64,000 nt of DNA from an uncultured archaeon (GTDB taxonomy: Archaea; Asgardarchaeota; Lokiarchaeia; Sigyniarchaeales; SOKP01). The stretch is from positions 64,001 through 128,000 of the forward strand of contig CAZALK010000007.1 in NCBI GenBank assembly GCA_964486045.1. The letters are read 5' to 3'. Below, piece by piece: positions 12,107 to 52,559 of this stretch (the stretch's first letter is position 1; the number at the start of each line of letters is the position of its first letter). The notes beneath the pieces are model-generated. The model was not told where the DNA came from. It searched no databases and worked only from the letters and a program-made list of their open reading frames with translations. A program made the translations under genes and the position numbers.

Positions 12107-12128
12107 AAGTTCATCACATTATGAAGTT
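12107..12128. repeat. Palindromic site A of the AAGTTCA-N8-TGAACTT family
   Basis: AAGTTCA-tcacatta-TGAAGTT (1 mismatch). Confidence 0.55.
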
Positions 12129-12274
12129 TTTAAAATTAATATAAAATTAATGAGGTATTATAGGGATGTTGATTTCTTTTCAGATCCCATTTTTCTTTTT
12201 TTTTTTTTTGATATTAAACTTATCTTTTACACAAGAAAATGATAATCCAGACACTCAGAACTAGGTTGTAGTAA

Positions 12275-12298
12275 TGAGTCCACTATCTAATGAACTTA
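12275..12298. repeat. Palindromic site B
   Basis: TGAGTCCA-ctatctaa-TGAACTTA. Confidence 0.65.
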
Positions 12299-12531
12299 CC
12301 ATTATTATTATCTCAAATTATTCTCCGCAAAAATATTAGATTTTATTTCAGAATTAGTTTTGTAGTAACTTATTTTACAGTTTATCTTACAGCAATCACG
12401 AATGAGACTCCCTTTTGATTTAATATATTCTCCTAAAAATTGTTATTAACAATTTAATATACTAGTTAATTAGAAATTTAAAGAGAATACTACATATTAA
12501 TAATTTAAAGCAATACTGGTTTGGAAATATA

Positions 12532-12897
12532 ATGAACGAAAATCATGATAAAAATACAGCAATTTCATTTTTCAAAGAAGATGTAAAAGAATTTACCAAA
12601 GGACGGGATTGGGTCAAATACCATACTCCTAAGAATTTAGTACAAGCAATAAATTGTGAGGCAGGAGAGCTTTCTCATTTATTACTTTTTAAGGATTATT
12701 CTAAGAATGATATTTGGGGTAATAAAAACCTCATTAATAACATTTCTGATGAAATTGCAGATGTATTTATATACCTCATTGGGCTTATTAATGCTTTAGA
12801 TCTGGATTTAACCCAAGTTTTCATGAATAAAATGAAAAAAAACAAAAAAAAATATCCAACTAAAGAGTTTAACAGCGGGATTTATTATAAAAAATAA
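12532..12897 (+). CDS. MazG-like nucleotide pyrophosphohydrolase (dCTP pyrophosphatase type)
   Basis: RDWVKYHTPKNL..AI..EAGEL, DEIADVFIYL, KMKKNKKKYP. Confidence 0.88.
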   Translation: MNENHDKNTAISFFKEDVKEFTKGRDWVKYHTPKNLVQAINCEAGELSHLLLFKDYSKNDIWGNKNLINNISDEIADVFIYLIGLINALDLDLTQVFMNKMKKNKKKYPTKEFNSGIYYKK

Positions 12898-13091
12898 GAC
12901 TTTCTTTTTTTAATTTTAATAAATCACTCCCTTTGGCACTATGTGGTCTTTATTGCAGTATATGGATCATAAATATTTTTAGAAATAAAAACTATAATAG
13001 CTGTAAGATTCCCCTTGATGTAGTTTGTACAATTCAATATTATTTCATTAATAAAAAGATTATTTAGGATTTTTTCTACTATAATAAAATC

Positions 13092-14069
13092 ATGGTAGCA
13101 AAAAATATTGATGATATAATCAAAAAACAATTAAGTCATACACTAAGCGAAACCAACTTTACTCAATTAGGAAAATTATATAAAGGGAAGGTTCGCGATA
13201 ATTACATAAAAGAAAATAAAAGGATAATTATTTCAACTGACCGATTATCCTCTTTTGATCGTGTTATTACCACTATTCCCTTCAAAGGTCAGTTGTTAAA
13301 TCAAATTTCTTCCTTCTGGTTTGAAAAAACAAAAAACTTAGTAAAGAATCATATTATAAGTATACCAGATCCAAACGTCTCAGTGGTTCATCAATGTAAA
13401 ACCCTCCCTGTTGAAATTATTGTTCGAGCTTATATTACAGGTACTGCATGGCGCAATTACTTAAAAGGAGAACCTACTTCTGGAATAGTGCTACCGAAAG
13501 GATTAGAGAAAAACCAGAAATTAGAGGAAGTTCTTGTTACTCCCTCGTCCAAAGCAGAATCTGGACATGACATATATCTTTCTAAAGAACATATTATGAG
13601 GAATAAAATGGTGGAAAAAGATATCTATGAAGACATGGAGGAAGCAGCATTAAAATTGTTTAGATTTGGTCAAAAATACTGTAAGAAAAACGGTCTAATT
13701 ATGGTAGATACTAAGTATGAATTTGGGATAAAAGAGGGAGAACTTATGCTGATTGATGAGCTCCATACACAAGATTCTTCGAGATTCTGGATTGCAGAAA
13801 CTTACGATGAGAAAATAGGTAAAGGAGAAGAACCCGAGATTTTAGACAAAGAAATATTTAGAGGATGGCTCATGAAAACCTATCCCGATATTTTTCCTGA
13901 TATTAAACCTGAAGACGACATACCACCAATATCAAATGATATTAAAATTGAATTAGCAAAAAGATACATGAAAAGTTATGAAAAAATTACGGGATTTGAA
14001 TTTAAAGCTAATGTTATGGATGTTAGCCAAAGGATTCTCGAAAATTTAAAGGAAGCAAATTACTTATAG
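13092..14069 (+). CDS. purC: SAICAR synthase
   Basis: YKGKVRDNY, TDRLSSFD, LPVEIIVRAYITG, DTKYEFG, IDELHTQDSSRFW, DKEIFRGW. Confidence 0.95.
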   Translation: MVAKNIDDIIKKQLSHTLSETNFTQLGKLYKGKVRDNYIKENKRIIISTDRLSSFDRVITTIPFKGQLLNQISSFWFEKTKNLVKNHIISIPDPNVSVVHQCKTLPVEIIVRAYITGTAWRNYLKGEPTSGIVLPKGLEKNQKLEEVLVTPSSKAESGHDIYLSKEHIMRNKMVEKDIYEDMEEAALKLFRFGQKYCKKNGLIMVDTKYEFGIKEGELMLIDELHTQDSSRFWIAETYDEKIGKGEEPEILDKEIFRGWLMKTYPDIFPDIKPEDDIPPISNDIKIELAKRYMKSYEKITGFEFKANVMDVSQRILENLKEANYL

Positions 14070-14115
14070 GAAGGGAGAAAAATTTAAATAAGAAACAAAT
14101 GTATTTTATTGTATC

Positions 14116-14310
14116 ATGCTAGATTTAATTCTATTATTTCTTAATTTTCCGTTGTTTATGTTTAGCTTTATATTTTTAATACTTGATATGAAAAATTATA
14201 AGGAGAATAAGTATAAAGATCTAGCAACGAATAAATTACCGAAACGAAGTTCTTACAGCCTATTATTTGGTCTTTTAGCATTGATATTAGCCGTAATTAT
14301 TAGTTTATAA
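14116..14310 (+). CDS. Small 2-TM hypothetical membrane protein
   Basis: Two hydrophobic segments flanking a basic loop. Confidence 0.4.
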   Translation: MLDLILLFLNFPLFMFSFIFLILDMKNYKENKYKDLATNKLPKRSSYSLLFGLLALILAVIISL

Positions 14311-14539
14311 GAGTGATTTCAAGCATTCCTATAATTTCCTAAGCCTATAACTAGATTCTAATTCCGTAATTTTAAGGATAATTAAATCCTACTTATCTTC
14401 CTTAAATTATTCAGAATAAATTTGGTAGAATAGCTCGAAAAATTTAAAATAACAGCCCGTTCTTATCGTTTTTGTCGAGGGCAATTATTTTTAAGTTAAT
14501 AAGAACTAATAAAAATATATACACCTTCCTTACTCACAA

Positions 14540-14809
14540 ATGGATCCCTTAGATTTTATTGTGGAAGTTGTTCTTGAAAATAAACCAGCCGCGCGCGATC
14601 CCGTCGGACAAACCATTCAAAAAGATCTTTTAGCAAAAAAAGGATATGATATGGTAACTAAAGTTCGGTCCGGGCAATATTTACGAATTTACTTAAAATC
14701 TGCTGGAGAAATAGAAGCTAGAGAAATTGTAGATAAAATGTGTAATGAGCTTCGAATTTTTAATCCTGTTACTCAAAATTTAACTATATTAAAAGTAACA
14801 AAATCATGA
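14540..14809 (+). CDS. purS: FGAM synthase subunit PurS
   Basis: KP..RDPVG.TI and NPV motifs; overlaps purQ. Confidence 0.9.
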   Translation: MDPLDFIVEVVLENKPAARDPVGQTIQKDLLAKKGYDMVTKVRSGQYLRIYLKSAGEIEAREIVDKMCNELRIFNPVTQNLTILKVTKS

Positions 14810-15516
14810 GTATAAAAGTTGCCGTTATTGATTTTCCTGCGAGTAACTGTAATTTAGACGCTATACATGTTTTAAATAATGTTGTTAACGTGAAAGCAGA
14901 TTTAGTATGGCACAATCATTTTAAGGAATCTAATTATGATGGTGTTATTCTGCCAGGGGGTTTTTCCTTTGGAGATTATTTAAGAGCGGGGATTATTGCT
15001 GCTCATAGTCCTGCAATTGAAGAAGCAAGAATTATGCTAAATGATGGAAGACCGGTAATAGGAATTTGTAATGGTTTTCAGATTCTAACAGAAGCCCAAT
15101 TTCTCCCAGGTGCCTTATTGCGTAATGAATCCCTTAAGTTTATTTGTAAATGGGTGAATCTTAAAGTAGAAAATAATAAAACTGCCTTTACAAATAAATT
15201 GAAAGTAGGAGATGTGATTGATATTCCTATAGCTCATGGAGAAGGACGTTATTATACTGATGATTTAAAGGAATTAGAAGAGAATGAACAAATTGTATTT
15301 AGATATTCTAATGAGAATGGGGAATTCAGAAAAGATACTAATCCTAATGGTTCCCTAGATAATATTGCAGGAATTTGTAATTTAAACCAGAATTGTATTG
15401 GATTGATGCCCCATCCAGAACGCGCTTCAGAACCTATTTTAAGCCCCAAAAAAACAGATCATGGGAAGTTAATATTTGAATCTATGGTTGAATTTATAAA
15501 AGGGAGGTTATCATAA
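14806..15516 (+). CDS. purQ: FGAM synthase glutaminase subunit PurQ
   Basis: PGGFSFGDYLRAG, GICNGFQIL, AHGEGRY, MPHPER. Confidence 0.97.
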   Translation: MSIKVAVIDFPASNCNLDAIHVLNNVVNVKADLVWHNHFKESNYDGVILPGGFSFGDYLRAGIIAAHSPAIEEARIMLNDGRPVIGICNGFQILTEAQFLPGALLRNESLKFICKWVNLKVENNKTAFTNKLKVGDVIDIPIAHGEGRYYTDDLKELEENEQIVFRYSNENGEFRKDTNPNGSLDNIAGICNLNQNCIGLMPHPERASEPILSPKKTDHGKLIFESMVEFIKGRLS

Positions 15517-17762
15517 TGACGAAGGTAAGCCTTGACGGTGAAGAGATTAGTGTTGAAATGACCAATGAAGAATTTAAAAAGGTTAAGGAGTTATTAAATA
15601 GAGAGCCAAACATCACGGAATTAGGGATGTTTGATGTGATGTGGAGTGAACATTGTTCCTATAAATCATCACGCCCAAAATTAAAACTATTCGAAAATGC
15701 CGAAGAAAATTATGATTATGTTTTAGCTGGCCCTGGTCAGGACGCGGGTGTGATTGATATCGGTGAAGGTTATGCATTAGCATTCAGAATTGAGTCTCAT
15801 AATCACCCTTCAGCCATTGAGCCTTATCATGGCGCTGCTACGGGGGTTGGCGGCATCCTTCGCGATATTCTGAGCATGGGCGTTCGCCCAATCGCGCTAT
15901 TGGACCCGTTAAGATTTGGGTGTTTAAGAAACAATCCACATTCACAGTGGTTATTTAAATATGTTGTGAAAGGTATTGCTGATTATGGAAATTGTACAGG
16001 AATTCCCACTATTGGAGGAGAGGTTGAGTTTGATGATAGTTTTGAAAGTAATTGTATTGTAAATGTAGCCTGTATAGGTTTGGGAACAATAGAAGATTTC
16101 AAACACGCCCCAAGCAGAGCTTATAATCCTGGTGATTATGTAGTTTTAATGGGAGGATCAACAGGGAGAGATGGAATCCATGGGGTAACCTTCGCTTCTC
16201 GTGCGCTGACAGAGATGTCTGAAGCGGATAGACCCGCTGTTCAAATTGGTGATCCTTTTACAAAGAAGATGATCATTGAAGCTACTCTAGAAGCTGTTAA
16301 ATCTGGATATGTAAGAGGCTTAAAGGATCTTGGGGGAGGGGGTTTGACCTGTGCAACAAGCGAATTGACTGGTGATGGGAACACTGGGGCAAAGGTGGAT
16401 TTAAGGAAAGTATTTACCAGAGAACCCGATATGAATTCTTATGAAATTATGCTTTCTGAATCACAGGAGCGAATGACTTTTATAGTCAAACCTGAAGGAT
16501 TAGAAAAAATTATTGATATCTTTAGAAAATATGAAACAACTTTTGCTGTAATTGGTAGAACAGATGATTCAAAAGTTCTGAAGGTTTTTGACGAGGAAGA
16601 ACTGGTTGTAAATATTCCTGCAAAGGCACTTTCAGAGTCCCCGACTTTTAAACGTGAGGAAAAACGACCATCCTACCTAAATGAATTATTGACTCAAAAA
16701 ACTCCTGAAACAAATTTGAGTTTAGAAGCAATAATTTATAGGTTAATCGCATCAGAAAATATTTGTAGTAAAGAATGGGTTTATCGACAATATGATCATG
16801 AAGTTGGAGTAAGATCAGTAGTTAAGTGTGGGGAAGGAGATTCCGGCGTTCTAAGGATCATCGGAACGAATAAATTTATTGCTGCTAGTGTAGGAGTGAA
16901 TTCAAAACATTGCTTTTTGGATCCTTATGAAGGAGCAAAAGGTGGACTAGTTGAAGAATGCGGGAATATTATCTCAAATGGAGCAAAACCAATGGCAATG
17001 GTAAACTGTTGTAATTTTGGAAACCCTGAAATTCCCGAATCGTTTTGGTATTTTTCTAAAGCTGTCCAAGGTATGGATGACTTTTGTAGAGCTCTAAAAA
17101 TACCTATTGTAGGAGGAAATGTATCATTCTATAATGAGGACGATGTAAAAAAGATCGCGATCAAAGCTACACCAGTGATTATGATTGTTGGAATTATTGA
17201 AGGTGAGAATAATATTATAACGCTTCCATTTAAAGATTCCGGCAATGAAATTTTTCTAATTGGAGAAACTAAAGCGGAGTTAGGAGGATCTGAATTCCAT
17301 TCTGTTATTCATAACTTGGAAGGTGGTAAACCTCCAACTGTAGATAATGAGAAAATAAAAGCTAAGTGGGATTTCCTATTTGAATTATATGATAGAAAAA
17401 TTGTGAAAGCTAACCATGATGTAAATAAAGGAGGAATTATTATTACTGTTTCAGAAATGGGCTTCAAAAATAAATTAGGAGCGGATCTTGACTTTAGAAA
17501 TTGTTATGATGAAAATTTAAGGGATGATGAATTTCTATTTAGTGAATCAGTTGGTAGATTTATTATTGAAACAAGCCCAAAAGATCATGGTTTAATACTC
17601 GATCTTGCCAAACAATTTAGTGTAGTTATTAACAAAATTGGGGTAGTAAATTCAAATCCGATAATTAAGATAAGTGGGTTAAAATCAGAAAATTTTAAAC
17701 TTGATGTAGAAAATATGAAGGAGTTATACGAATCTACAATTCCAAATTTAATGGAAATTTAG
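15516..17762 (+). CDS. purL: FGAM synthase subunit PurL
   Basis: WSEHCSYKSS, ESHNHPS, LSESQERM, GGNVSFYN. Confidence 0.97.
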   Translation: MTKVSLDGEEISVEMTNEEFKKVKELLNREPNITELGMFDVMWSEHCSYKSSRPKLKLFENAEENYDYVLAGPGQDAGVIDIGEGYALAFRIESHNHPSAIEPYHGAATGVGGILRDILSMGVRPIALLDPLRFGCLRNNPHSQWLFKYVVKGIADYGNCTGIPTIGGEVEFDDSFESNCIVNVACIGLGTIEDFKHAPSRAYNPGDYVVLMGGSTGRDGIHGVTFASRALTEMSEADRPAVQIGDPFTKKMIIEATLEAVKSGYVRGLKDLGGGGLTCATSELTGDGNTGAKVDLRKVFTREPDMNSYEIMLSESQERMTFIVKPEGLEKIIDIFRKYETTFAVIGRTDDSKVLKVFDEEELVVNIPAKALSESPTFKREEKRPSYLNELLTQKTPETNLSLEAIIYRLIASENICSKEWVYRQYDHEVGVRSVVKCGEGDSGVLRIIGTNKFIAASVGVNSKHCFLDPYEGAKGGLVEECGNIISNGAKPMAMVNCCNFGNPEIPESFWYFSKAVQGMDDFCRALKIPIVGGNVSFYNEDDVKKIAIKATPVIMIVGIIEGENNIITLPFKDSGNEIFLIGETKAELGGSEFHSVIHNLEGGKPPTVDNEKIKAKWDFLFELYDRKIVKANHDVNKGGIIITVSEMGFKNKLGADLDFRNCYDENLRDDEFLFSESVGRFIIETSPKDHGLILDLAKQFSVVINKIGVVNSNPIIKISGLKSENFKLDVENMKELYESTIPNLMEI

Positions 17763-17941
17763 TTAAGGTTTATTTGCATGAATATTATCGAATTTCATTG
17801 ACTTTTAATCAAAAATTGTTCATTTTAAAACTTTATTTCAATATTGTTCGTCCCTCACGAACAAATTAAAATAAAAACCAAAACTTTGAAATAATTTCCA
17901 AGTTTAAAATAATATTGAAGGATAAATTAGAGATAGGAATT

Positions 17942-18148
17942 ATGAGTCTTCGTTGTCGTGCTTGTATCAAATGCAAAACATATTTAGTTATTCATGCTGA
18001 TAATCCCATAAATCAAGTTGAAATAAAAAATTTCGAAAGAAAGCACACAAGCCATATGATTATGACAGTTGAATTAAATGAAGTGAAAGGAGTTTACAGC
18101 CCATTTACAAATAATGGTGGTACTAAGACAACTGAAGAAAAGGATTAA
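17942..18148 (+). CDS. Small putative CxxC...HxxH metal-binding protein
   Basis: ATG at 17942; ACIKCK and RKHTSH. Confidence 0.55.
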   Translation: MSLRCRACIKCKTYLVIHADNPINQVEIKNFERKHTSHMIMTVELNEVKGVYSPFTNNGGTKTTEEKD

Positions 18149-18304
18149 TATTCTTTAGATGTTATCAATTTCACGCCTATTTTTATATAGATGTTAATTT
18201 TTCTAAAATTGATTAAATTTTAATATGAAAATCATCATGGGGATCTAGAAAATAATTAAATCTAATTTGAGCGATAATTATACTTTGTAAAAATCTCTTT
18301 CAAA

Positions 18305-18925
18305 ATGAGAATAGGTACCCAATTCAAAAAATTACACAAAAAGATTGAAACTGGAAAGGAGTTTAAGCAAAAATCATATAAAAAAAGATCAGGAGGATAT
18401 TTATATACTGATTCAAGAAGAAGGAAACCTAATGAAAATAAAATGGGGAAATTAATAGAAAAACTAAATTTTTTAAAACTCTTAATGAATATTATAAATG
18501 AAGGAGCCACTGGATTTGAATTAGCTTATGAAGTTGAGAAAAATCAAGAAGTAAAGAATTTAATTTACGACGGTATTTTGTTTTACAACACTTTTATAGA
18601 AATTGGTAATAAGAAATTTTTAGATGCTCCTGATAAAGTCAAAGTAGATTATCGATCTTTTAAAACAATTGAAGATACTGAAAAGTATATATTTATGATA
18701 TGGTTGAAAGATAAAATCACCTCACTTGAGAAGAGATTTCAACCTAAAGAGAATTATGCGAAATTTGTTGTGGCTAAAAAAACTCATGAGATAAAGGAAG
18801 CATTGAAGAAATTACGCGAAAAACTGACTCATTGTAAAAATTGTGGGGCACGGATACAAAGTATAGAACAAATATTATGTGAGGAATGTGGAAAAAACCT
18901 TATGGAGAGTATTTCACAAAAATAA
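18305..18925 (+). CDS. Hypothetical protein with C-terminal zinc ribbon
   Basis: CKNCG...CEECG. Confidence 0.6.
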   Translation: MRIGTQFKKLHKKIETGKEFKQKSYKKRSGGYLYTDSRRRKPNENKMGKLIEKLNFLKLLMNIINEGATGFELAYEVEKNQEVKNLIYDGILFYNTFIEIGNKKFLDAPDKVKVDYRSFKTIEDTEKYIFMIWLKDKITSLEKRFQPKENYAKFVVAKKTHEIKEALKKLREKLTHCKNCGARIQSIEQILCEECGKNLMESISQK

Positions 18926-19012
18926 AAATCAGACTTCGGGATTAAGAAACTCAGTTTTGCTCAGCAATTAATTACATAAAAAGAAAAAAAAAATTATTTA
19001 AGTTGGAATGTT

Positions 19013-20503: not shown

Positions 20504-20506
20504 TTT

Positions 20507-21890: not shown

Positions 21891-21914
21891 TTAGTTCACT
21901 ATTTAATGCACTTA
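21891..21914. repeat. Palindromic site C
   Basis: TTAGTTCA-ctatttaa-TGCACTTA, 11 bp beyond the stop of 21926..22492. Confidence 0.65.
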
Positions 21915-21925
21915 GCTAATTTCTT

Positions 21926-22492
21926 TTAAGATTTGAAAAAATGAGGTTTAACATTCAAGATTATCTCACAATCACAGTGTCCACCTAAATGCTCACATAA
22001 TTCAAGAAATTGTTTCTGAGTCTTTTTGTCAACACCTAAATGTGCTAAAATCCTTTTAGACGATTCATGCCCATGGCAATTTGACCCAAAACGAGTTAAA
22101 TTAATGCCATATTCCCCCTCTAATAAGTTAAAGAATTGGTTAATCTCAACTCTCGTTAGTTCTAAATTTTCTTCCAATTTTCTGAAGTAGACCCGAGTAT
22201 GATTACAACCTATGCATATCCACTGTTCTAAATCAGGGATGAAAATCATGTCTCTATCGCTCCTTCCGCAAAATGAACATGTGCAAATCGACCTGCGATT
22301 TAACAATTTTAATTGCGTAATTTTTTTTTTGACTTCATCAAACTTCTTATCATCTCTACCAAAATAGTAATCACGTTCATCCACAAGAGAAATGTGAATG
22401 TCAGTAAGCCATAGTTTTAAAATGGTCCCCAATGCGTTCCTAGTCTTTCTAAGCCGAGGATCTTTTATTATGATAGCCCGTTCTTTCTTCAT
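21926..22492 (-). CDS. Zn-finger protein with DUF2695-like C-terminus
   Basis: CSFC..WICIGC; C-terminal CHGH...LGGHCDCEIILNV; N-half paralogous to 11624..12001. Confidence 0.7.
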   Translation of the reverse strand: MKKERAIIIKDPRLRKTRNALGTILKLWLTDIHISLVDERDYYFGRDDKKFDEVKKKITQLKLLNRRSICTCSFCGRSDRDMIFIPDLEQWICIGCNHTRVYFRKLEENLELTRVEINQFFNLLEGEYGINLTRFGSNCHGHESSKRILAHLGVDKKTQKQFLELCEHLGGHCDCEIILNVKPHFFKS

Positions 22493-32172: not shown

Positions 32173-33215
32173 TTTTTATCAACCTCTGTCATTAGTTCGT
32201 TGTTATTTTTTACCATTTCGGTATAAACTCTCTCCAATTGGGATGTTTTTGGTTGAGTAAATGAGACTACAGTAAAATCTGATTCGAACTCCCTTATTAG
32301 TATTTTTAAGATTTCTCCTTTTGATTCATTTTTTCCATCATAAAATATTTTCAATCTTTGGTTTTCAGGCAAATATTTTACGGGTATCTTTGAGATATCA
32401 GGATCCAAGTTTTTATCTAAAAAGGGATTAAGTTTCTCTGCCAATCTATTTAATAATGGTTCTAATTCACTCGCATTAAGCGGTTTAAATAGTTCAGCGT
32501 TTAATTCACTAGTTTTCAAAGTAAGTGCTAAATTCTCGACTGTATCAAATCCTATAATAGATCCTAAGTTGATTAGGGCTATTTTGTCACACACTTCGGA
32601 AATTTCATATAACATATGTGAGGCTACAAATATTGTTTTTCCTTGAGCCTGAAGCTCCCGAATATATTTCCGGATTTCAACACGAGCTAATGGATCCAAA
32701 CCAGTTTGAGGCTCGTCTAGTATAATAATTTCAGGATTATGTATAAGGGCTTGAATAATACCTACTTTTTGGGTCATTCCTTTAGAAAAGTTTTTAACTT
32801 TCTCATGTTTCCAATCAGTAAGCTTAAAAAGTGCCAGTAATTCATCGATTCGCTCATTAATTTGACCTTTTGGATAATTTTGAAGATTAGCAAAATATCT
32901 AAGGAGTTGATTAGCTGTCATATTGTAAAAGCTTGGGATATCAATCAAAAATCCAATTTGTGTAGCTGTATTAGAAACATGCTGTAAATCTTCTAATTTA
33001 TTGTTATTTGTTCGGATTAGGATTCTTCCTGAATTTGGTCTCAATATCTTCGCAATCATTTTAATAGTAGTCGTTTTTCCTGCACCATTAGGTCCAACCA
33101 ATCCTATAGTTTCACCTCTATGAACTTCTAAGTTAACTCCTTTCACGGCCGTAAAATTCCCAAACTTTTTAGTTAAATTTTCAAATTTTATTACAATTTC
33201 TGACATTGTTTTCAT
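32169..33215 (-). CDS. ABC transporter ATP-binding protein
   Basis: GPNGAGKTT, FSKGMTQK, ILDEP.TGLDP, ASH. Confidence 0.93.
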   Translation of the reverse strand: MKTMSEIVIKFENLTKKFGNFTAVKGVNLEVHRGETIGLVGPNGAGKTTTIKMIAKILRPNSGRILIRTNNNKLEDLQHVSNTATQIGFLIDIPSFYNMTANQLLRYFANLQNYPKGQINERIDELLALFKLTDWKHEKVKNFSKGMTQKVGIIQALIHNPEIIILDEPQTGLDPLARVEIRKYIRELQAQGKTIFVASHMLYEISEVCDKIALINLGSIIGFDTVENLALTLKTSELNAELFKPLNASELEPLLNRLAEKLNPFLDKNLDPDISKIPVKYLPENQRLKIFYDGKNESKGEILKILIREFESDFTVVSFTQPKTSQLERVYTEMVKNNNELMTEVDKK

Positions 33216-44002: not shown

Positions 44003-44494
44003 ATGACTGATAAAGAAGAAGAATTAGATTATCACGGTGTTGCGCCTATTAGATCGATCATAAAGAAGATGAAAAAAGAGTACGATAAAGATTCTAAAGA
44101 TTGGAGAGTTATTGGTTCAAAAGATCGAGATGGGAACTCGGATACAATCATATCAAAAAAGGCCAATCACTTTTGGTTAAAATCAAAACAATTAAGCCCC
44201 TTTTCAGCCTTATCTATGGGTTCAGTAGTACGAAATCTTGATAGAGATATTGATGAAAAGATGGGGAAACAGATGTCTCCAGATGAGATGCTCCGTTTCT
44301 TCGGGATGGTTGTTCCACTTAAAGAAAATAAAAATATTATAGCAACTGGAATAGAAAAATATTCGCAGGAACAAGGGGATTATCTAAAAAAAATTATTAA
44401 AGAAAGAGATTCGAATTTAGATTATCAACTTCGTCATAGAATTGATAAAGAATTCATTAAAAAACATCCTCAAAGAAAAAATTTATTTATTTAA
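44003..44494 (+). CDS. Hypothetical protein
   Basis: 163-aa ORF with typical codon usage. Confidence 0.6.
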   Translation: MTDKEEELDYHGVAPIRSIIKKMKKEYDKDSKDWRVIGSKDRDGNSDTIISKKANHFWLKSKQLSPFSALSMGSVVRNLDRDIDEKMGKQMSPDEMLRFFGMVVPLKENKNIIATGIEKYSQEQGDYLKKIIKERDSNLDYQLRHRIDKEFIKKHPQRKNLFI

Positions 44495-44529
44495 GTGTTA
44501 AAAATCTTTACCAAACTTAACCCAAAGTC

Positions 44530-44940
44530 TTAAACTTTTTCTTTTAAGATATTGAGTTGATCTTTACTTTTAATAACTGGAAGGTTTGCTGAATACTTAT
44601 CTGAATTATTAATTAACTCTGCTACAATAGCGCTCATTTTTTCAGTCCCAGATTTTCCTTCCAGGGAGTTAGTGAATTCTTTCAACAATGCAACCTTCAA
44701 ATCTTCCACATAGAACGTTACTCCCTTTTCAACCTCTTCAAGAAGAAACTGAAATGAAAGGTCAGCATTTCTTTCAGTTTTAAAAAAGGGCTCATCAGGA
44801 TCCTCAAAAGTATAGGAAACTTCAATCCAACGATCGTTATCGGTAGGGACCATCCCAAAAATGTAATCTTTTGTGTGAAGCCAAAAAGGGGTTCCTTTAT
44901 CAAAAGATGAATCTACAAGTGCTTTAAATTCCTCACTCAT
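44530..44940 (-). CDS. Hypothetical acidic protein
   Basis: 136-aa ORF with a GAGGA SD-like motif upstream. Confidence 0.6.
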   Translation of the reverse strand: MSEEFKALVDSSFDKGTPFWLHTKDYIFGMVPTDNDRWIEVSYTFEDPDEPFFKTERNADLSFQFLLEEVEKGVTFYVEDLKVALLKEFTNSLEGKSGTEKMSAIVAELINNSDKYSANLPVIKSKDQLNILKEKV

Positions 44941-45075
44941 ACCAAGTTATTCCTCTAATTTTTATTTAAACTTTTTCTTAGATAGATTAATGAAAAAGAT
45001 TTTTTTAATGTTATAATTTTAAAATTTCTTTTTTAATCTTAGCTTTTAGATTAGGTTTAATAAAAAGAATATTAA

Positions 45076-45858
45076 ATGAAAGGAAAATTGAGAAATATTA
45101 TGCGTACTTTAGATTACGACTTAACAATTTCAACAATTCAAGAATGGATAAACGATTATTGCAAATCTGCTAATGCTGATGGAATTGTTGTTGGGATAAG
45201 TGGGGGTATTGATAGCGCTGTAACTTCAACTCTCTGCACTAATGCAATAGGAAAAGATCGCGTAATAGGTTTAGGTTTACCTTGTTTATCAAATCCTAAA
45301 GATTTGACTGATTCTAAATTGTTAGCTTCCCAATTAGGGATAAAATTTTTAGTTTTTGATTTGTCATCAGTTTATGAAGAATTTATGAAAAAAACTATAA
45401 ATATTATTAAATCAAATAATCTCGCGACAGCAAACTTAAAAGCTCGATTAAGGATGGTAACCGGGTATTTTATGGCACAATCTGAGGGAAATTACTTAAT
45501 AGGAGGCACAGGAAATAGAACAGAATTAGCAATTGGATATTTTACAAAATTTGGAGATGGTGCAGTTGATTTTGAACCTATCGGTGGATTGTATAAATGC
45601 GAGGTAAGGAATATTGCAAAAAGGCTAAATATTCCAGAGGAGATTATTAATAAACCACCTTCAGCTGGATTATGGGAAGGACAAACAGATGAAGGAGAAA
45701 TTGGTATGACTTATGATATAATGGATGAAATAATCTACAGAATTGATCATCATTTAAGTTTAAACGATTTAAACAAAAGTGATATAGAAAAAGTTAAAGT
45801 ACGGATTAAAAAGTCAAAACATAAGAACAATTTACCACCAGTTTTTAAGGTAGATTAA
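45076..45858 (+). CDS. nadE: NH3-dependent NAD+ synthetase
   Basis: GISGGIDSAV, NLKARLRM, GTGNRTE..IGYFTKFGDG, PPSAGLWEGQTDE. Confidence 0.95.
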   Translation: MKGKLRNIMRTLDYDLTISTIQEWINDYCKSANADGIVVGISGGIDSAVTSTLCTNAIGKDRVIGLGLPCLSNPKDLTDSKLLASQLGIKFLVFDLSSVYEEFMKKTINIIKSNNLATANLKARLRMVTGYFMAQSEGNYLIGGTGNRTELAIGYFTKFGDGAVDFEPIGGLYKCEVRNIAKRLNIPEEIINKPPSAGLWEGQTDEGEIGMTYDIMDEIIYRIDHHLSLNDLNKSDIEKVKVRIKKSKHKNNLPPVFKVD

Positions 45859-45930
45859 TTATTAAACTTTTCTCATTAATAAAATTATTCTTTTAACGGA
45901 ATTTGAGACTCAATTGGTAAATATAAGGAA

Positions 45931-46051
45931 ATGAAAAGACCAGGACCATTGGGTTGACATTGATATCGATTTATGTGTTGGTGCAGCTGATTGTGGGGCA
46001 TGTTTAGACGTGTGTCCCACAAATGCTATTTTAAATCATTTAGCTTGGTAA
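45931..46051 (+). pseudogene. Ferredoxin relic with a single cluster motif
   Basis: DHWVDIDIDLCVGAADCGACLDVCPTNAILNHLAW*; the upstream ATG is out of frame. Confidence 0.6.
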
Positions 46052-46164
46052 ATCAAGCTCTTAATCTTGTTTTAATTCAATAATAAAATATGAAGAAAGA
46101 ATGGGTATAAACTTTATATAAATCGAAAAGTTATCACATTTTGAAATAAAACAGCAGTATAGAT

Positions 46165-47784
46165 TTACATACTCGCGATTATTCTTCTAATTCTATTAAT
46201 TCGCGAAGTTATTTCATCTTGATTATTCTTAAAATCTTCACTATGGTTTTTATATTCAACCTCAGAAATCGATCCCCCATTAAAGTTTCTTTCTAGCTCT
46301 TTAAAGCTTTTTTCCAGTGAATATCTTCTCCCTTCAAGGGCAATTAGTTCCTGATATAAAGAATCTTTATCTTTAGGTAGCTCGTTAGTGCTAATTGATG
46401 TATTTTCTTCGGCAGTACTAGTTTGCGGTTCGGTAGAATCAAATCCAACAAAAGGCATTGTTTCAATATCTTTCTTTTTCTTTTTTCCCTCTTTTTTCTT
46501 CTTTTCTTTCGCAGGTTTTAAGCTTGGAAATTCCGATTGAGGTGCTATTTTCTCAGCTCGTTTGCTCCCAACTGAAGAAAATACATCGAAAAGTTGGGTA
46601 CCACTTGATTTAATGGGTTCAGACTCAATTTCTTCAACACTTACAGAAGAGATTTTGGGTGTTTGTGCCAGGAATGGTGCTGGTTCCTTTTGATCTATTG
46701 TATCTTGAATAAGAAATGGTGCCGGGGTTTTTTTTTCTGCTGGTTCTTCTTCGATGAGTGTTATTTCAGTAGAAATTAAAGGTTTTTTTTTTGGTACGGG
46801 AGTTTTGGGTTCTATGATTTTTGGTTCTTCTTCTTTATATTCAGATTCTTGTTCATCTAATATATCTAGAATTGATGTCGATTCTTTTGGTAAATTTTCA
46901 TCTATTTTAGGTTCAGGTCTAATTGGAACTGGTTTTAGTTCTTCGAGAAGATTCAAAATTGTTTCTTCTTCTTTTAATTCTACTGTATCTTTCGGTATAA
47001 CGTCGAGAGACGAAGGAGGAGGTTGAAATCTAGGGTGTGTTTGAGGTGGTTTGGGTGGCGGAGGGAGAGTTATTGTTGAAATGGGTTTTAATTTTTCAAT
47101 TTCTTTTTCTATCTTGACTTGAACATCTTCAATCGACTTAACTCCTATTTTTTCTTTTGGTTTTTCCACGCCTGTTTTAATTTCCCCAAGAATGTGAGGT
47201 GGTTTTTTAGGTCTTTTAATGATGGGAATTTTAATCTTTGGAGGAGGTAGTTTTGAATTTTTCTTGGGTTTAATTTTTATAACTTTTTTTTGAGTAACCC
47301 TTTTAGATGTCTCATCTTTCTCGTCAATCTCGTGTTGTAAGAAGTCTATTTTTTGTTTAAGATCATCGATCTCACCCTTAAACTTATCTGAGACTTGGTT
47401 TACTATCTCTTTAATATCAATTTGGGTTGGACTTGATTCAACTTCCACTTCTTTTTTTGATATTAGTTCAGATTCATCTTTAACTTCAACATCAGGTAGT
47501 TTATCGGTTAAATTGATTATTTTTTTAATATAATCTGGTACTTCAGATTCTGTAAACCATAATTCAAGTGTATCCCAATTTTCTAAATTAGTAAGAACAT
47601 CTTCAAATAAGCGCATATTTGCTCCTACGTCATAGAAATTTACCTTTATTAAATTTTGGATTAACTGGATGAGACTCAAACGCGCTTCGATTTCATCCTC
47701 TGGAGTTGGTTCTCCTTGAATTAAGAATAAATGAATATCTTTAATTTCTTGAATTATAGTTTTAAATTTTTCTTCTTCGCTCAT
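46165..47784 (-). CDS. Large hypothetical protein: helical N-domain, coiled coil, long Pro/Lys/Glu-rich linker, helical C-domain
   Basis: LPPPKIKIP, PPPPKPPQ, QPPP; heptad-like segments. Confidence 0.75.
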   Translation of the reverse strand: MSEEEKFKTIIQEIKDIHLFLIQGEPTPEDEIEARLSLIQLIQNLIKVNFYDVGANMRLFEDVLTNLENWDTLELWFTESEVPDYIKKIINLTDKLPDVEVKDESELISKKEVEVESSPTQIDIKEIVNQVSDKFKGEIDDLKQKIDFLQHEIDEKDETSKRVTQKKVIKIKPKKNSKLPPPKIKIPIIKRPKKPPHILGEIKTGVEKPKEKIGVKSIEDVQVKIEKEIEKLKPISTITLPPPPKPPQTHPRFQPPPSSLDVIPKDTVELKEEETILNLLEELKPVPIRPEPKIDENLPKESTSILDILDEQESEYKEEEPKIIEPKTPVPKKKPLISTEITLIEEEPAEKKTPAPFLIQDTIDQKEPAPFLAQTPKISSVSVEEIESEPIKSSGTQLFDVFSSVGSKRAEKIAPQSEFPSLKPAKEKKKKEGKKKKKDIETMPFVGFDSTEPQTSTAEENTSISTNELPKDKDSLYQELIALEGRRYSLEKSFKELERNFNGGSISEVEYKNHSEDFKNNQDEITSRINRIRRIIASM

Positions 47785-47996
47785 GAAGGATTACTTGATT
47801 TATTTTTATTACCTTTCAGCTAAATATTTCTTTTTAAGTAATTAAAAACTTTTCGCCAATATATTTTTATGTGAAGTTTAAATTGATTATAGATTATGAA
47901 ACTTTTGGTACAAATACTTGAGTACTAAATGTTTCATCTGACTTATTCAATTGAAGAAATTAAAATTAATATCCAAAAGGTTTGGTAAATATGAAA

Positions 47997-49340
47997 TTAA
48001 TACCCCATTTTATGTTCTACCTCAGAAAAGACTGTATCAAGAATATGGTAAGCTTTTTCAGTTTGGTCGTACGTCACCTCAAGTGGTGGTTGGATTCTTA
48101 TAACATTCCCGTCAATTCCACCCTTTCCTATAAGCAATCCATTTTTTTTGCAAATTTCCATAACTTGTAGCATTTCTTGAGTAGCAGGTTCCTTTGTATT
48201 TTGATCACGGACGAGTTCTATCCCTAACATCATTCCTTGTCCGCGTACATCACCAACTAGTTTATGATCCGCTTTAAGATTTAGAAGTTGATTCTTAATT
48301 GATGTACCAAGTTTTGTAGCTTTACTTAGATACTGTTCTTCTTGGATAATTTCAATTACAGCTATTGCCGCTGCACATGAAAGGGGATTACCACCAAAAG
48401 TTGTAAAACTATCTGTTGTAGTATACTCTGCAGCATATTCTGGGTGCGTTAGAATCCCACCTATTGGAATACCGCTACCAAAACCTTTTGCTATAGTAAT
48501 GACATCTGGTGTTACGTTTGATTGTTGAATGCCCCACCAACGATCCCCAGTACGTCCAAATCCTGTTTGGACCTCATCAGCAATGAAAAGACCGTCAAAT
48601 TCTTTTACGATTTCATAAGTGATTTGGAAAAATTCGGGAGGAGGTTGAACAATGCCGCCAACTCCTTGGATCGGCTCAACAATGAAGGCAGCAATGGCGT
48701 TATTAGTCTGAGTTCGGATTACTTCACGAAGATAGCGAGCACACTCAAAATCACAATCAGGATATTCCTTCCCAAACGAACACCGATAACAGTACCCATA
48801 AGGGGTAAAGCGAACACCGGGAGGGTGAGATTCAGGTACCGTACGCCACCCTGCGCTAGAAATCTCACGAGTTAATTGAGTACGTCCATGATAAGCATGA
48901 GTGCATGCTACGATATAAGGATTTTTTCTATATTTTCGAGCCATAAACAACGCAGATTCATTCGCTTCCGACCCACTATTTACAATAAAAGACTGCGATA
49001 AACCTGTAGGCGCAATTTGAGCTAATTTTTGGGAAAGTATAGCGTATGGGATAGTTGAATACAACGTACTAGAATAAATTAGGTGTTCTGCTTGCCATTT
49101 GAGGGTTGCAATGAATTTTGGATGGTTGTATCCAGTAATTTTTGTGCAAATGCCGGAGAAGAGATCGATATATTGCTTACCCAAATCATCTTCTACTATC
49201 GCACCTTTACCCCCCACAATTAGGATTGGATCCTCAAAATAATGAGTGACTGCAGGGATCATGTGTTTTTCTTCAATTGCAAGGATCTCCTTACTTGTAT
49301 AAGTTTTACGAAGGTCCTTGGGTACAAGTGATTCATCCAT
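47997..49340 (-). CDS. Class III PLP aminotransferase, AGXT2/beta-alanine aminotransferase-like
   Basis: NSGSEANE, AYHGRT, EPIQGVGG, ADEVQTGFGRTG, AKGFGSGIP, TFGGNP. Confidence 0.9.
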   Translation of the reverse strand: MDESLVPKDLRKTYTSKEILAIEEKHMIPAVTHYFEDPILIVGGKGAIVEDDLGKQYIDLFSGICTKITGYNHPKFIATLKWQAEHLIYSSTLYSTIPYAILSQKLAQIAPTGLSQSFIVNSGSEANESALFMARKYRKNPYIVACTHAYHGRTQLTREISSAGWRTVPESHPPGVRFTPYGYCYRCSFGKEYPDCDFECARYLREVIRTQTNNAIAAFIVEPIQGVGGIVQPPPEFFQITYEIVKEFDGLFIADEVQTGFGRTGDRWWGIQQSNVTPDVITIAKGFGSGIPIGGILTHPEYAAEYTTTDSFTTFGGNPLSCAAAIAVIEIIQEEQYLSKATKLGTSIKNQLLNLKADHKLVGDVRGQGMMLGIELVRDQNTKEPATQEMLQVMEICKKNGLLIGKGGIDGNVIRIQPPLEVTYDQTEKAYHILDTVFSEVEHKMGY

Positions 49341-49496
49341 TTATTTCACTTTAGGTTTATTAATTGTTAATTTAGTTATCTAATGATGTTTATTATTGAA
49401 AACAAATTTGAAAAAGCATATAAATATTTAATTGTTTTCCAATTTTATTTTCTACATTAACTATTTTACTTAAAGAAAAAAAATTTTGATTAGTAC

Positions 49497-50975
49497 ATGA
49501 ATATCTTAAAAAATTACATAAATGGAAAGTTTGTAGAATCAGAAAGTAGTCGATTCAACGAATTTATGAATCCTGCCTTAGATGAACCCCTTGGTAAAGT
49601 CCCCATATCAACAGAAGAGGAAGTAAATAAAGCTGTTGAAGATGCTAAAGCTGCATTTCTAAAATGGAGAAAAGTACCGGGAATTCAAAGAACTCAACCC
49701 CTATTAAGATTGGTGAGTTTAATTAAAGAAAATGTTGATTCTATCGCTGAATCTATCGTAATAAATCATGGGAAAGAATGGAAGGCTGCAGCAGGAGAAG
49801 TAGTCCGAACTTACCAAATGATTGAAACCTCACTTGCGGTACCTGAGTATCAAAAAGGTCAGTATATGTCTAATATTGCATTGGGTATTGATGAATATTC
49901 TATTCTTGAACCTTTAGGAGTCTTTATCATGATTCCTCCTTTCAATTTTCCAGCGATGGTTCCATTTTGGTTTTGGCCATTTGCTGTTGCTGCTGGGAAT
50001 ACATATATAATAAAATCAAATGAGCAAACCCCTCTGGCTTTACAAAATATTTTTGAATATATCGATAAGGCAGGCTTTCCACCAGGTGTTATCAATTATA
50101 TCCATGGTGATGTAGAAGTTGCGAATTTTTTAATTGAACATCCTAATGTTGTAGGTATATCGAGTGTAGGATCAACTCCAGTAGCTCAAGCTATTTACAA
50201 AAAAGCAAGTAGTTTATGTAAACGAGCTCAATGCCATGGAGGAGCAAATAATTTTCTGGTTATTACTGAGAATGCCAATATTGAGAAAATAATGCCTAAT
50301 TTAATGAATGGTCTCTTTGGTAACTCAGGGCAAAGATGCTTATCTGGGGCTGTAATTATGATTGTTGGAAAAAAAAGTTTTTATGATAATATCAAGAAAC
50401 AACTCATAAAAGCGACAAATTCACTTAAAGTCGGATATAGTATGAATAGAGATACGTTTATGGGACCAGTTGTCTCTAAAATATCGCTGAATAAACTACA
50501 TGGTCAAATTCAGAATGGAATTGATGAAGGAGCATCATTAATATTAGACGGGAGGGGAATTAAAGTACAAGGATATGAGAAAGGATATTTTCTAGGACCA
50601 TGCTTATTTGAAAATGCCAAACCTGGGATGACAATATATGATGAAGAGGTTTTTGGCCCTGTTGCATGCCTTGATCGGGTGGACACTTTAGAAGAAGCGG
50701 TGAAAATTATTAACCTAAATCCAAAAGGAAATGCAGTGACAATCTATACCGAAAGTGGGGAAGAAGCACGCTTTTTCCGGAGTGAAATTTTCAATATACA
50801 AATCGGTATAAATATCGGCGTTGTAGCACCTCTTGCGTGGTTCCCATTTGCTGGAGCGAAAGATTCCTTCTTCGGTACACTTCGAGCTCAGGGACGTGAA
50901 GCAATAAAATTTTTTACTCAAGAACGTGTAATAATTGAACGATTCCATGGGAGTACAAAAATCGAATGGGATTAG
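49497..50975 (+). CDS. mmsA: CoA-acylating (methyl)malonate-semialdehyde dehydrogenase
   Basis: PFNFPAMVPFW, VGSTPVA, KRAQC.GGA.N, GQRCL, EEVFGPV, GINIG..APLA.FPF. Confidence 0.88.
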   Translation: MNILKNYINGKFVESESSRFNEFMNPALDEPLGKVPISTEEEVNKAVEDAKAAFLKWRKVPGIQRTQPLLRLVSLIKENVDSIAESIVINHGKEWKAAAGEVVRTYQMIETSLAVPEYQKGQYMSNIALGIDEYSILEPLGVFIMIPPFNFPAMVPFWFWPFAVAAGNTYIIKSNEQTPLALQNIFEYIDKAGFPPGVINYIHGDVEVANFLIEHPNVVGISSVGSTPVAQAIYKKASSLCKRAQCHGGANNFLVITENANIEKIMPNLMNGLFGNSGQRCLSGAVIMIVGKKSFYDNIKKQLIKATNSLKVGYSMNRDTFMGPVVSKISLNKLHGQIQNGIDEGASLILDGRGIKVQGYEKGYFLGPCLFENAKPGMTIYDEEVFGPVACLDRVDTLEEAVKIINLNPKGNAVTIYTESGEEARFFRSEIFNIQIGINIGVVAPLAWFPFAGAKDSFFGTLRAQGREAIKFFTQERVIIERFHGSTKIEWD

Positions 50976-51005
50976 TTGGAAAAAATTAAAAAAACCTATG
51001 GTTAG

Positions 51006-52310
51006 ATGATAAAAATGGGAAAAAAAGAAGAAACCAAATTTGAAACTGCCTTCACGATGGCTACATCTAGTATCAAGTATGGTCCAGGTGTAACACGTGA
51101 AGTAGGGTATGATATGAAAAAGCTTGGAGCAACTCGCGTGATGGTGGTCACAGATCCAAACTTAACCAATAGCGAACCAGTGTCAGTTACACTTGAAGCC
51201 CTCCAACAGGAAAATTTAGAAGTAATTTTATATGATCGAGCTCGGGTTGAACCCACCGATAATTCTTTCAAAGATGCAATCAAATTTGCTACTAAGGGTA
51301 ACTTTGATGGATTCCTCGGAGTTGGTGGAGGCTCTAGCATAGATACCGCTAAGGTAGCTAACTTGTATTCATCTTATCCTAAGGATTTTTTAGCTTATGT
51401 TAATGCCCCAATTGGCCAAGGACTTCCTGTACCTGGCCCTTTGAAACCTATGATAGCAATTCCAACAACAGCAGGGACGGGAAGTGAAACGACTGGAGTT
51501 GCAATTTTCGACTTGGTAAAAATGCATGCAAAAACGGGTATTGCACATCGTGCATTAAGACCGTTTATGGGAATTATAGATCCGAACAATACTCGAACAG
51601 TGCCAAAAATGGCTGCTGCTTCATGTGGATTTGACGTTCTTTGTCACGCGTTGGAATCTATTACTGCACTCCCATATAATAAGCGACTTGCCCCTGAAAG
51701 CTTAGAATTACGTCCAGCTTACCAAGGAGCAAACCCAATAAGCCATCTTTGGGCATCTAAGGCAATTGAAATGGTTTCAAAAAACCTTGTACAAGTCGTC
51801 AAAGATCCCTCCAATGATGCTGCACGATCAGAGATGATCCTTGCTTCCACATTCGCAGGTATTGGCTTCGGTAATAGCGGCGTGCATCTTGCGCACGGAA
51901 TTTCGTATCCGGTTTCGGGAATGGTACGGGAATATATCCCTGAAGGTATTAAATCGGAGCACCCAATCATCCCCCACGGAATGGGTGTAGTCACCGTATC
52001 CCCAGCTGTGTTTCGTTTCACAGCAGAAACCAATCCAGAGCTACACTTATATACCGCGAAACTAATGGGTGCTGATATCTCTGGTGCGAAAGAAAAGGAT
52101 GCGGGAGAAATACTTGCAACTGAACTGATTAAACTGATGAAAGCCACGGGCATGCCTAATGGTCTAGAAGCGCTTGGCTTTGGACTAAACGATGTGGAGG
52201 ATTTAGTACAAGGAACCCTACCCCAGCATCGAGTCACTAAGCTTTCACCCCGTCCGGCCAGCGCTGAGGATCTCCGGAAACTTATCACCGAATCGATGAC
52301 TCTATGGTAA
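51006..52310 (+). CDS. Hydroxyacid-oxoacid transhydrogenase (HOT/ADHFE1-like iron-containing ADH)
   Basis: ATSSIKYGPGVTREVG.D, VEPTD.SF, AYVNAPIG.G.P, RPAYQGANP, GVHLAHG.SYPVSG, GTLPQ.RVTKLSPR. Confidence 0.9.
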   Translation: MIKMGKKEETKFETAFTMATSSIKYGPGVTREVGYDMKKLGATRVMVVTDPNLTNSEPVSVTLEALQQENLEVILYDRARVEPTDNSFKDAIKFATKGNFDGFLGVGGGSSIDTAKVANLYSSYPKDFLAYVNAPIGQGLPVPGPLKPMIAIPTTAGTGSETTGVAIFDLVKMHAKTGIAHRALRPFMGIIDPNNTRTVPKMAAASCGFDVLCHALESITALPYNKRLAPESLELRPAYQGANPISHLWASKAIEMVSKNLVQVVKDPSNDAARSEMILASTFAGIGFGNSGVHLAHGISYPVSGMVREYIPEGIKSEHPIIPHGMGVVTVSPAVFRFTAETNPELHLYTAKLMGADISGAKEKDAGEILATELIKLMKATGMPNGLEALGFGLNDVEDLVQGTLPQHRVTKLSPRPASAEDLRKLITESMTLW

Positions 52311-52323
52311 TAGAAGATATTTC

Positions 52324-52349
52324 TTAAGTTCACTTGCCTATGAACTAAA
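52324..52349. repeat. Palindromic site D
   Basis: TTAAGTTCA-cttgccta-TGAACTAAA, 13 bp after the HOT stop. Confidence 0.75.
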
Positions 52350-52533
52350 TATTTTTTTTTTTATTATTATTCTATCATTCTGCGTAAAATCTTTAATTTT
52401 AAACATTCAAAGATGGTAAAATTTTAATAATTTATTCATCTGACAATATTTCTATTGCGTATTCGTAAAAATCTTCATTTAAATTGATTTTAGAGTAGAA
52501 AAAAAAGATTAAATTAAGGAATATTTCCTATAG

Positions 52534-52559
52534 TTAAGTTCACAGTCGGATGAACTTAA
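52534..52559. repeat. Palindromic site E (perfect arms)
   Basis: TTAAGTTCA-cagtcgga-TGAACTTAA. Confidence 0.75.

Follow-up and report, generated by a model that had tools for sequence, protein, structure and literature searches.

A dispersed, lineage-restricted family of 24-bp palindromes associated with accessory genes in an Asgard archaeon

Five short intergenic palindromes in a 64-kb window (the whole stretch of DNA analysed, 64,000 nucleotides from an uncultured archaeon of the Lokiarchaeia) represent the more divergent members of a larger genome family, in which a single asymmetric 24-mer, TAAGTTCA-CTACCTAA-TGCACTTA, recurs approximately 46 times. We favour, with a probability of roughly 0.45, an explanation in which a young mosaic repeat, confined to this lineage and tied to accessory cassettes, has left the palindromes as its copies and relics; in form it comes nearest to bacterial REP/BIME elements or to a one-ended MITE. 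The conserved unit of such a repeat would be a 24-bp site, asymmetric and built of two dissimilar half-sites, and predicted to be recognised by a protein rather than to form a hairpin. It occurs alone, with a second repeat of 120-460 nt (R1) behind it, or directly after the stop codons of small accessory genes. Units containing the site would be copied, presumably by an enzyme, to gene boundaries in intergenic DNA, where they would then mark the borders of accessory cassettes and probably promote their swapping, duplication and inversion.

The gain and shuffling of accessory genes in Asgard archaea are largely unexplored territory, and recognisable transposases are nearly absent from the present genome, which nonetheless contains many integrase-free islands. 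A short repeat at the borders of strain-variable modules provides a concrete and testable handle on such shuffling, and junctions could be sought in two conspecific assemblies, ENA ERZ23499938 (from which the window derives) and ERZ23500248, and in their read sets, SRR8799000 and SRR8799001 being of the same project. An enzyme acting on the site, should there be one, would probably represent an undescribed type; should there be none, a REP/BIME-like family in a RAYT-free archaeon would call for a new explanation of its spread.

The palindromes of the window and their genome-wide family

All five palindromes on which the preliminary description was based were recovered, in numbers well above the shuffled expectation. 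With at most one mismatch, the pattern AGTTCA-N8-TGAACT matches the window five times against a mean of 0.28 in shuffled sequence, and none of 100 shuffles reached five; when two mismatches are allowed, the signal is lost (nine matches versus five expected), and an additional match of this kind at 32491, within a coding frame, looks like chance. Site A (12107-12128, plus strand) is a divergent copy with one arm mismatch and a non-consensus spacer, located 107 nt 3' of the stop of a Zn-finger family gene. Sites B (12275-12298, plus strand, PWM score 32.1) and C (21891-21914, plus strand, solo, PWM score 32.4) are near consensus, and their spacers differ, as had been noted, by a single base. Site D (52324-52349) is a perfect-arm variant at the left border of a strain-specific segment, and site E (52534-52559) is a perfectly palindromic variant whose spacer shares 6/8 bases with that of a copy at C5:34227, both being without an assigned strand. 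The downstream words named earlier for B and D are present at both, and the reported position of C and D 11-13 bp past stop codons is accurate: the minus-strand gene 21926-22492 has its stop 11 nt from C, and the stop of an Fe-ADH gene precedes D by 13 nt. A and B had been presented as a pair; both sites are real, yet they are relics that happen to abut, not a designed doublet, since A heads a decayed longer repeat while B follows a pseudogene remnant.

At a PWM score of 16 or more, the genome contains approximately 46 copies and the reversed genome three. The matrix was trained on the same copies that it ranks and the arm and spacer counts are therefore partly circular: among the 30 best genome copies, the spacer is CTACCTAA in seven and CTACCCAA in five, and the right arm is TGCACT in 18 and TGAACT in three. 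The spacer, which had been described as variable in sequence, is conserved in the family. In the consensus of the 30 copies, inverted arms flank a 6-8-bp asymmetric centre, the layout of tyrosine-recombinase core sites.

Copies occur on at least 18 chromosomal contigs, with a maximum of four sites to a cluster and a centre fixed at 8 bp. Their intergenic placement was borne out, as 43 of 46 lie between genes under a crude gene model in which 79% of the genome is coding (binomial P ~1e-25). The motif pattern has 41 strand matches in the genome, compared to two for a control pattern, and the distance from a site to the next start codon ranges from 39 to >1000 nt with no favoured value. As the motif is neither at background frequency, nor equally present in coding sequence, nor held at a fixed distance from promoters, the preliminary description is not refuted on the three counts that it had itself named.

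The family is restricted in its distribution. Among 40 congeneric species the motif occurs at background, and the site with R1 was found in metagenome contigs of a sister lineage. A viral source was rejected: IMG/VR yielded two motif matches, but neither resembles this genome and both appear fortuitous. Pairwise similarity among copies is only ~75-92%, such that no event is caught in the act within the genome. Of 61 in-register pairwise alignments of copies, 55 have the site as the point where similarity sets in or breaks off, these paralogous junctions being resolved only to ~12 nt.

Associated repeats, gene families and strain-variable segments

R1 follows the palindrome in approximately 18 genome copies. 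In alignments of the elements (A2-A4) the palindrome stands at one end only, and terminal inverted repeats are missing. The decayed copy of R1 at site A (12129-12216, plus strand, alignment A2) was detected by nhmmer as a weak match of window positions 12105-12216 to profile positions 16-122 (E 1.5). It is replaced by different sequence in a contig of a conspecific strain (L080), and site B is unaltered in the conspecific strain. At an orthologous position of a sister lineage, both site and R1 are missing.

Three accessory gene families are linked to the site. The first is a coiled-coil orphan family, 143 aa long in this genome and 304-335 aa at full length, in which the site stands 6 nt after the stop of three intact gene copies and after gene remnants elsewhere. 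Similarity to gene ends of the family identifies one such remnant, of the 3' end, at 12229-12274 (plus strand); window positions 12229-12310 are 73-81% identical to the ends at C13:162262, C13:165765, C10:166065, C10:119070, C23:63836, and C3:235680. Site B lies directly 3' of the former stop, the same placement as in the intact copies. The possibility that the orphan gene simply brings the site along as part of its own 3' flank was rejected, given that homologues in two congeners and a further copy in this genome (C7:139230) lack it. A full-length orphan protein from a congener (304 aa) has no Pfam match, and an AlphaFold model of the orphan (pLDDT 80, pTM 0.66) predicts long helices and a small C-terminal sheet-helix unit, for which Foldseek returned no PDB structure at E <=0.001 and only coiled-coil look-alikes. 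The orphan protein was rejected as a hidden recombinase on the basis of these searches. Its relatives number only 32, mostly fragments, among 1.84 billion representatives.

The second family comprises ten Zn-finger paralogs, five of which, including those at A and C, have a site behind them. The 125-aa gene preceding A (11624-12001, plus strand) has a counterpart of 91.7% identity in a sister-lineage contig, inverted with respect to its flanks and without the site, while the flanking genes are merely 72-77% identical. The paralog preceding C (21926-22492, minus strand, 188 aa) shares 29% identity with the 125-aa gene (BLASTP, E 2e-9), and its 90% cluster has no other members. In the third family, nine of 42 LRR-family genes have a site 84-600 nt upstream, its orientation relative to the gene being constant, and these nine are scattered over a FastTree phylogeny of the family.

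Comparison of strains places sites at the borders of accessory genes and strain-variable segments, the enrichment that the preliminary description had proposed to test for. Firstly, a 98%-identical conspecific strain carries a 662-bp insertion between rps17 and rpl14, where this genome has an empty site. The insertion is composed of a leader, a truncated orphan gene, the site and R1; it is flanked by a 21-bp direct repeat with unique sequence at both ends and therefore fits no standard transposon. The intact site lies in its interior, ~500 nt from one junction and ~150 nt from the other. Secondly, a 2447-bp segment of the window (52311-54757, plus strand), which holds D, E and the LRR gene 52927-54609, is absent from the conspecific strain. 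In its place are 707 bp with a fragment of a DNA methylase gene, as is also the case in the nearest species, and similarity to the conspecific strain stops at 52310, 13 nt before D. Thirdly, the strains differ at C1:425 kb by an inversion and an indel adjoining two sites. Two further strain-compared loci are unchanged. An empty-site comparison with GTDB congeners was dropped; the nearest is just 81% identical in a coding gene, and its intergenic DNA cannot be aligned as a consequence.

Candidate enzymes and comparison with known elements

The window encodes no recombinase, as had been stated, and its contig is without a match to tyrosine or serine recombinases, Y1, IS110, IS1595, DDE_Tnp_1 or TnpB. 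A search for Y1/RAYT transposases (PF01797, E 0.01) gave no match in the 99% complete genome, with control genomes responding, and no TnpB rose above the cut-off; IS200/IS605 subterminal hairpins and a REP-RAYT system were rejected accordingly. Serine recombinases or invertases, IS110 and IS1595 had no genome match either, which led us to set aside systems of these kinds. A MITE of a DDE element was rejected because the two DDE_Tnp_1 genes have neither a site nor matching ends nearby. The genome has five PF00589 tyrosine recombinase genes, and copies of the site beside integrases, which the preliminary description had proposed to look for, proved to be the exception: only the recombinase at C23:57649-58887 has sites within ~3 kb. 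Its family is sporadic, being present in three of the 40 congeners, all three without the motif, so that co-occurrence of family and motif was not seen among them. No recombinase gene adjoins any cluster of sites. The failure of profile searches to find a mobilising enzyme, along with the want of a second inverted end in the elements, counts against a mosaic repeat, as do the poor fit of the 662-bp insertion to any standard transposon, the limited similarity among copies and the two loci unchanged between strains.

REP/BIME elements are short imperfect palindromes, restricted to a species or lineage, nearly all extragenic and often just past stops; they occur singly or in small alternating clusters, form mosaics with other short motifs, and are associated with rearrangements (PMC2817692, PMC3116915). 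The 24-mer resembles them as an extragenic, lineage-specific, imperfect palindrome found in mosaic clusters of alternating orientation. It differs in its archaeal host, in its copy number (~46 here versus hundreds) and in its AT-rich stem with a conserved mismatch, whereas the REP hairpin is a stable, GC-rich stem-loop with a GTAG or CGTC head (PMC3733652) that the 24-mer does not have. Unlike REPIN-RAYT systems, it resides in a genome with no RAYT or other Y1 transposase. Our literature search, which was not exhaustive, found no description of an archaeal REP family.

Two other classes of element invite comparison. Like MITEs, the site with R1 is non-coding, 120-460 nt long, intergenic, lineage-specific and missing at an orthologous position in the sister lineage; unlike them, it has a palindrome at one end, no terminal inverted repeats, no short fixed target duplication and, in our searches, no autonomous parent. 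As with attC sites of integrons, an imperfect palindrome directly follows the stops of small, unrelated accessory genes, and a unit of gene plus site is inserted in one strain and absent from another. However, attC is bipartite and variable in length while the 24-mer is simple and its centre is fixed at 8 bp, neither a cassette array nor attI nor an integron integrase forms its context, and the insertion junctions fall outside the site.

Alternative readings of the site

In the pdif (XerC/D) modules of Acinetobacter plasmids, as in dif, lox and FRT sites, strand exchange takes place inside the centre. That the 24-mer is likewise a tyrosine-recombinase core site, with bracketed modules excised, inserted and flipped as in pdif modules or shufflons, strikes us as doubtful. 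The geometry agrees well, with inverted, unlike arms of 7-9 bp around a short asymmetric centre conserved in the family, and the coincidence of homology junctions with the site is also in keeping with recombination there; yet in both clean strain comparisons (13 nt before D, and the 662-bp insertion) the junctions lie outside it. Alternating sites surround discrete accessory modules, as they do in pdif systems: orientations run -,+,-,+ at C13:162259-165808, and inverted sites bracket a module of an LRR gene plus an orphan gene on both C13 and C10. The sites bracketing either module have unequal spacers, although sister contig L060 has a 3.3-kb segment with a PKD gene between two near-identical, directly oriented sites, which share a spacer and are each accompanied by a copy of one and the same gene end. 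Inversions of site-adjacent segments between strains or lineages would suit a recombinase too, but no site occurs within 3 kb of four of the five tyrosine recombinase genes, and the family of the fifth occurs in three motif-free congeners. A dif-like host site should moreover be conserved in the genus, which the 24-mer is not, and its copies are scattered over many chromosomal contigs. Of the gene-shuffling system proposed in the preliminary description, the dispersed, intergenic family at accessory borders is supported, while strand exchange within the spacer is not. We regard as quite doubtful the broader proposal of an undescribed DNA-rearrangement system of Asgard archaea, in which the 24-bp site would insert, swap and flip LRR-family, Zn-finger and orphan cassettes by means of an enzyme that is either invisible to profiles or a repurposed host tyrosine recombinase.

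An operator function, in which a dimeric transcription factor would control LRR-family, Zn-finger and orphan genes through a site spread by the repeat and then co-opted, is unlikely. The constant orientation of sites 5' of nine LRR-family genes could be understood in this way, as could the three sites phased 44 bp apart ahead of the LRR-family gene at C5:34612, the site adjoining a TATA-like run ~40 nt before the start codon at C4:179459, and the retention of the site where neighbouring intergenic DNA no longer aligns. An operator accords poorly with the scatter of start distances and with the many copies 6-30 nt past stops or between convergent genes. Furthermore, the 40 congeners have the gene families without the motif, and no site accompanies the 91.7%-identical Zn-finger gene of the sister lineage.

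An RNA or single-strand DNA hairpin, acting as a terminator, an mRNA 3' stabiliser or, with R1, part of a small RNA, would suit the seven copies within 30 nt of a stop codon, the T run 3' of D and the two-part inverted repeat within R1, but is highly improbable: RNAalifold gives R1 a weak fold (-3.5 kcal/mol) with almost no covariation and the palindrome unpaired, Rfam has no family match for four loci at E 1 (a known RNA being rejected on both grounds), the most frequent form of the site has a conserved mismatch in its 7-bp AT-rich stem on both strands, and sites lie in both orientations relative to their nearest genes.

Size, consensus and distribution of the palindrome family

The five palindromes of the window (A, 12107-12128; B, 12275-12298; C, 21891-21914; D, 52324-52349; E, 52534-52559) lie where the preliminary description had placed them, and its finer observations were borne out: stop codons precede C and D by 11 and 13 nt, respectively, the spacers of B and C differ by a single base, and B and D have words in common downstream. 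When no more than one arm mismatch was permitted, the pattern matched five times in 64 kb, against a shuffle mean of 0.28 (0 of 100 shuffles reached five); with two mismatches allowed, its matches in the window were indistinguishable from background.

The window corresponds to C7:64001-128000 in the source assembly (a MAG of 5.18 Mb and 31% G+C, with an estimated contamination of 7.8%), and a scan of the whole assembly placed these copies at the divergent edge of a larger family with the consensus TAAGTTCA-CTACCTAA-TGCACTTA. The spacer, earlier described as variable, is conserved in the genome-wide family. A position matrix recovered 45 copies scoring at least 16, where the reversed genome yielded 3, and 23 copies scoring at least 25, where it yielded none; with site A, which the matrix misses, the family comes to 46 copies, spread over at least 18 contigs. 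The right arm is usually one position off the mirrored left arm, reading TGCACT in 18 and TGAACT in 3 of the 30 best copies; since the copies ranked by the matrix are also those from which it was derived, there is some circularity in these arm and spacer counts. The asymmetry was already visible in the first, symmetric search. Under the crude gene model behind these statistics (79% coding), 43 of the 46 copies are intergenic.

With its spacer, the motif occurs 20 times in the source genome (both strands) and 0 times in 30 relatives. The spacer-free pattern gives 41 strand matches, against 2 for a control, and only background numbers in 40 congeneric species, which are a sample of the genus. 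Outside the source genome, exact copies turned up on eight contigs, six from metagenomes and two from MAGs; best-stretch identity to the source genome is 83-91% for six of them and about 70-72% for the other two. On this distribution, the family belongs to the source species and its closest kin.

Genes and repeats neighbouring the sites

A conserved repeat, R1, lies 3' of about 18 copies; every one of these has 120 nt of it, and in three it extends to as much as 460 nt. The R1 headed by site A is decayed, and the site-plus-R1 layout is the same in the relatives' contigs with exact copies. In seven copies the site directly follows the stop codon of an orphan gene, 143 aa long in the source genome and 304-335 aa, full-length, in two congeners; the three intact copies all have a gap of 6 nt, and B is preceded by a 46-nt pseudogene remnant of the same gene. 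The orphan protein has no Pfam match, and its model (pLDDT 80), mostly long helices, matched no fold at an E value of 0.001 or below. On a contig of a more distant relative (L071:380-4028; JGI Ga0073582_104560), a group II intron reverse transcriptase is found directly upstream of an LRR-family gene and a 175-aa homologue, the latter with no palindrome 3' of it.

In a small Zn-finger family of ten paralogs, five members also have a site on their 3' side, among them the genes before A (11624-12001, plus strand, 125 aa) and before C (21926-22492, minus strand), which are 29% identical to each other. In a third family, an LRR-linked N-terminal domain, a site is found 84-600 nt upstream of 9 of 42 paralogs, its relative orientation never varying. 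These nine are dispersed across the family tree; since the motif is young while the paralogs are old, their sites were acquired several times. On contigs C13 and C10 an LRR gene and an orphan gene are bracketed by two sites in inverted orientation. Four sites on C13 alternate in orientation, one pair enclosing rpoN, an rpoN/Rpb10-like RNA polymerase subunit N gene (C13:162426-162879; L001:4427-4880) whose two palindromes each have about 65-77 nt of common flank.

Homology junctions and strain differences

Copies at different loci gave 61 in-register alignments, of which 19 have the left flank in common and end at most 14 nt past the site, while 34 begin within 12 nt of the site and extend rightward (BLAST alignment ends being accurate to about 10 nt). 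Two cover the site alone, and six continue through it on both sides.

Comparison with a conspecific strain from a second sample, about 98% identical, offered two clean cases. Its contig L070, 97.5-98.6% identical to contig C15 of the source genome, carries a 662-bp insertion (L070:3332-3993) exactly between the rps17 stop and the rpl14 start of a ribosomal protein operon, made up of a 170-nt leader, a truncated orphan gene, a site and R1. A 21-bp direct repeat (one mismatch), which takes in the first rpl14 codons, flanks it, and the source genome holds the empty site (C15:118438-118458, L073). The insertion provides new upstream sequence for rpl14. Conversely, the strain is without the window segment 52311-54757, which holds D, E and an LRR gene (52927-54609): similarity (96%) stops 13 nt before D, at the base where the stop codon of Fe-ADH ends, and picks up again at 54758. 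In its place are 707 bp with a methylase gene fragment; the nearest species is arranged likewise, so the segment is the derived state.

Elsewhere in the strain, the part of R1 after A is replaced and B is unchanged. At 425 kb on C1, an inversion and an indel separate the strains beside two sites, with gene ends duplicated. There (C1:424837-427713, compared with L087) a JAB/RPN11-like gene of 162 aa is inverted between strains, an additional LRR-family gene is present in the source genome together with a 153-bp inverted copy of the JAB/RPN11-like gene's 5' region, and both strains retain orphan copies of that gene's 3' end. Two further loci, C10:65490 and C3:246678, showed no strain difference.

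Among other lineages, site C8:77788 lies at a synteny break relative to sister lineages, and site C4:179459 falls within a 112-nt segment absent from contig L060, on which two near-identical sites flank a 3.3-kb PKD-gene segment, the same gene end being copied at each. The Zn-finger gene before A plus 54 nt (11623-12055) shares 91.7% identity with a contig from Loki's Castle sediment (L082:2500-2932), where it is inverted relative to neighbours (hydrolase, MazG-like and purine genes) that are only 65-77% identical to window genes, those that flank it matching at 72-77%. This suggests that a small cassette was recently transferred into the same intergenic hot spot.

Readings of the site

The reading we rank first, at a probability of roughly 0.45, is a mosaic repeat, REP/BIME- or MITE-like, that would travel with accessory cassettes and probably promote their rearrangement. 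It is preferred because the junctions lie outside the palindrome in both clean strain comparisons, the spacers of partner sites differ and no recombinase is linked to the sites. These observations count against a site-specific recombination system, which ranks second and seems unlikely, even though the layout of the sites and their bracketing of modules fit a tyrosine recombinase. The source genome encodes two DDE_Tnp_1 transposases and five tyrosine recombinases, of which only the C23 integrase has sites within about 3 kb; its family is also present in congeners lacking the motif. Y1 transposase, TnpB, serine recombinase, IS110 and IS1595 had no match in the whole genome, which is very poor in recognisable transposases despite its many strain-variable segments.

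An operator, third and less probable again, would account for the constant orientation upstream of LRR-family genes and for three palindromes on contig C5 (C5:34139-34246; L035:1139-1246) phased at exactly 44 bp, which have an LRR-family gene on one side and, at about 130 nt, a sequence judged by eye to be tRNA-like on the other. Against a conserved operator stand the variable distances to start codons, the many copies just after stops, and the motif's absence from congeners having the same gene families. The conserved asymmetry, together with the mismatch that the short, AT-rich stem contains, argues for recognition by a protein, leaving an RNA or ssDNA hairpin, ranked fourth, very improbable.

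R1 itself had no Rfam match, and its consensus fold is weak and without covariation. On the opposite strand, its long form carries a small conserved reading frame, 42-93 codons long and terminating immediately ahead of the R1 inverted repeat, located at C11:172928+189..374 with homologues at C19 and C11:121907-122640.
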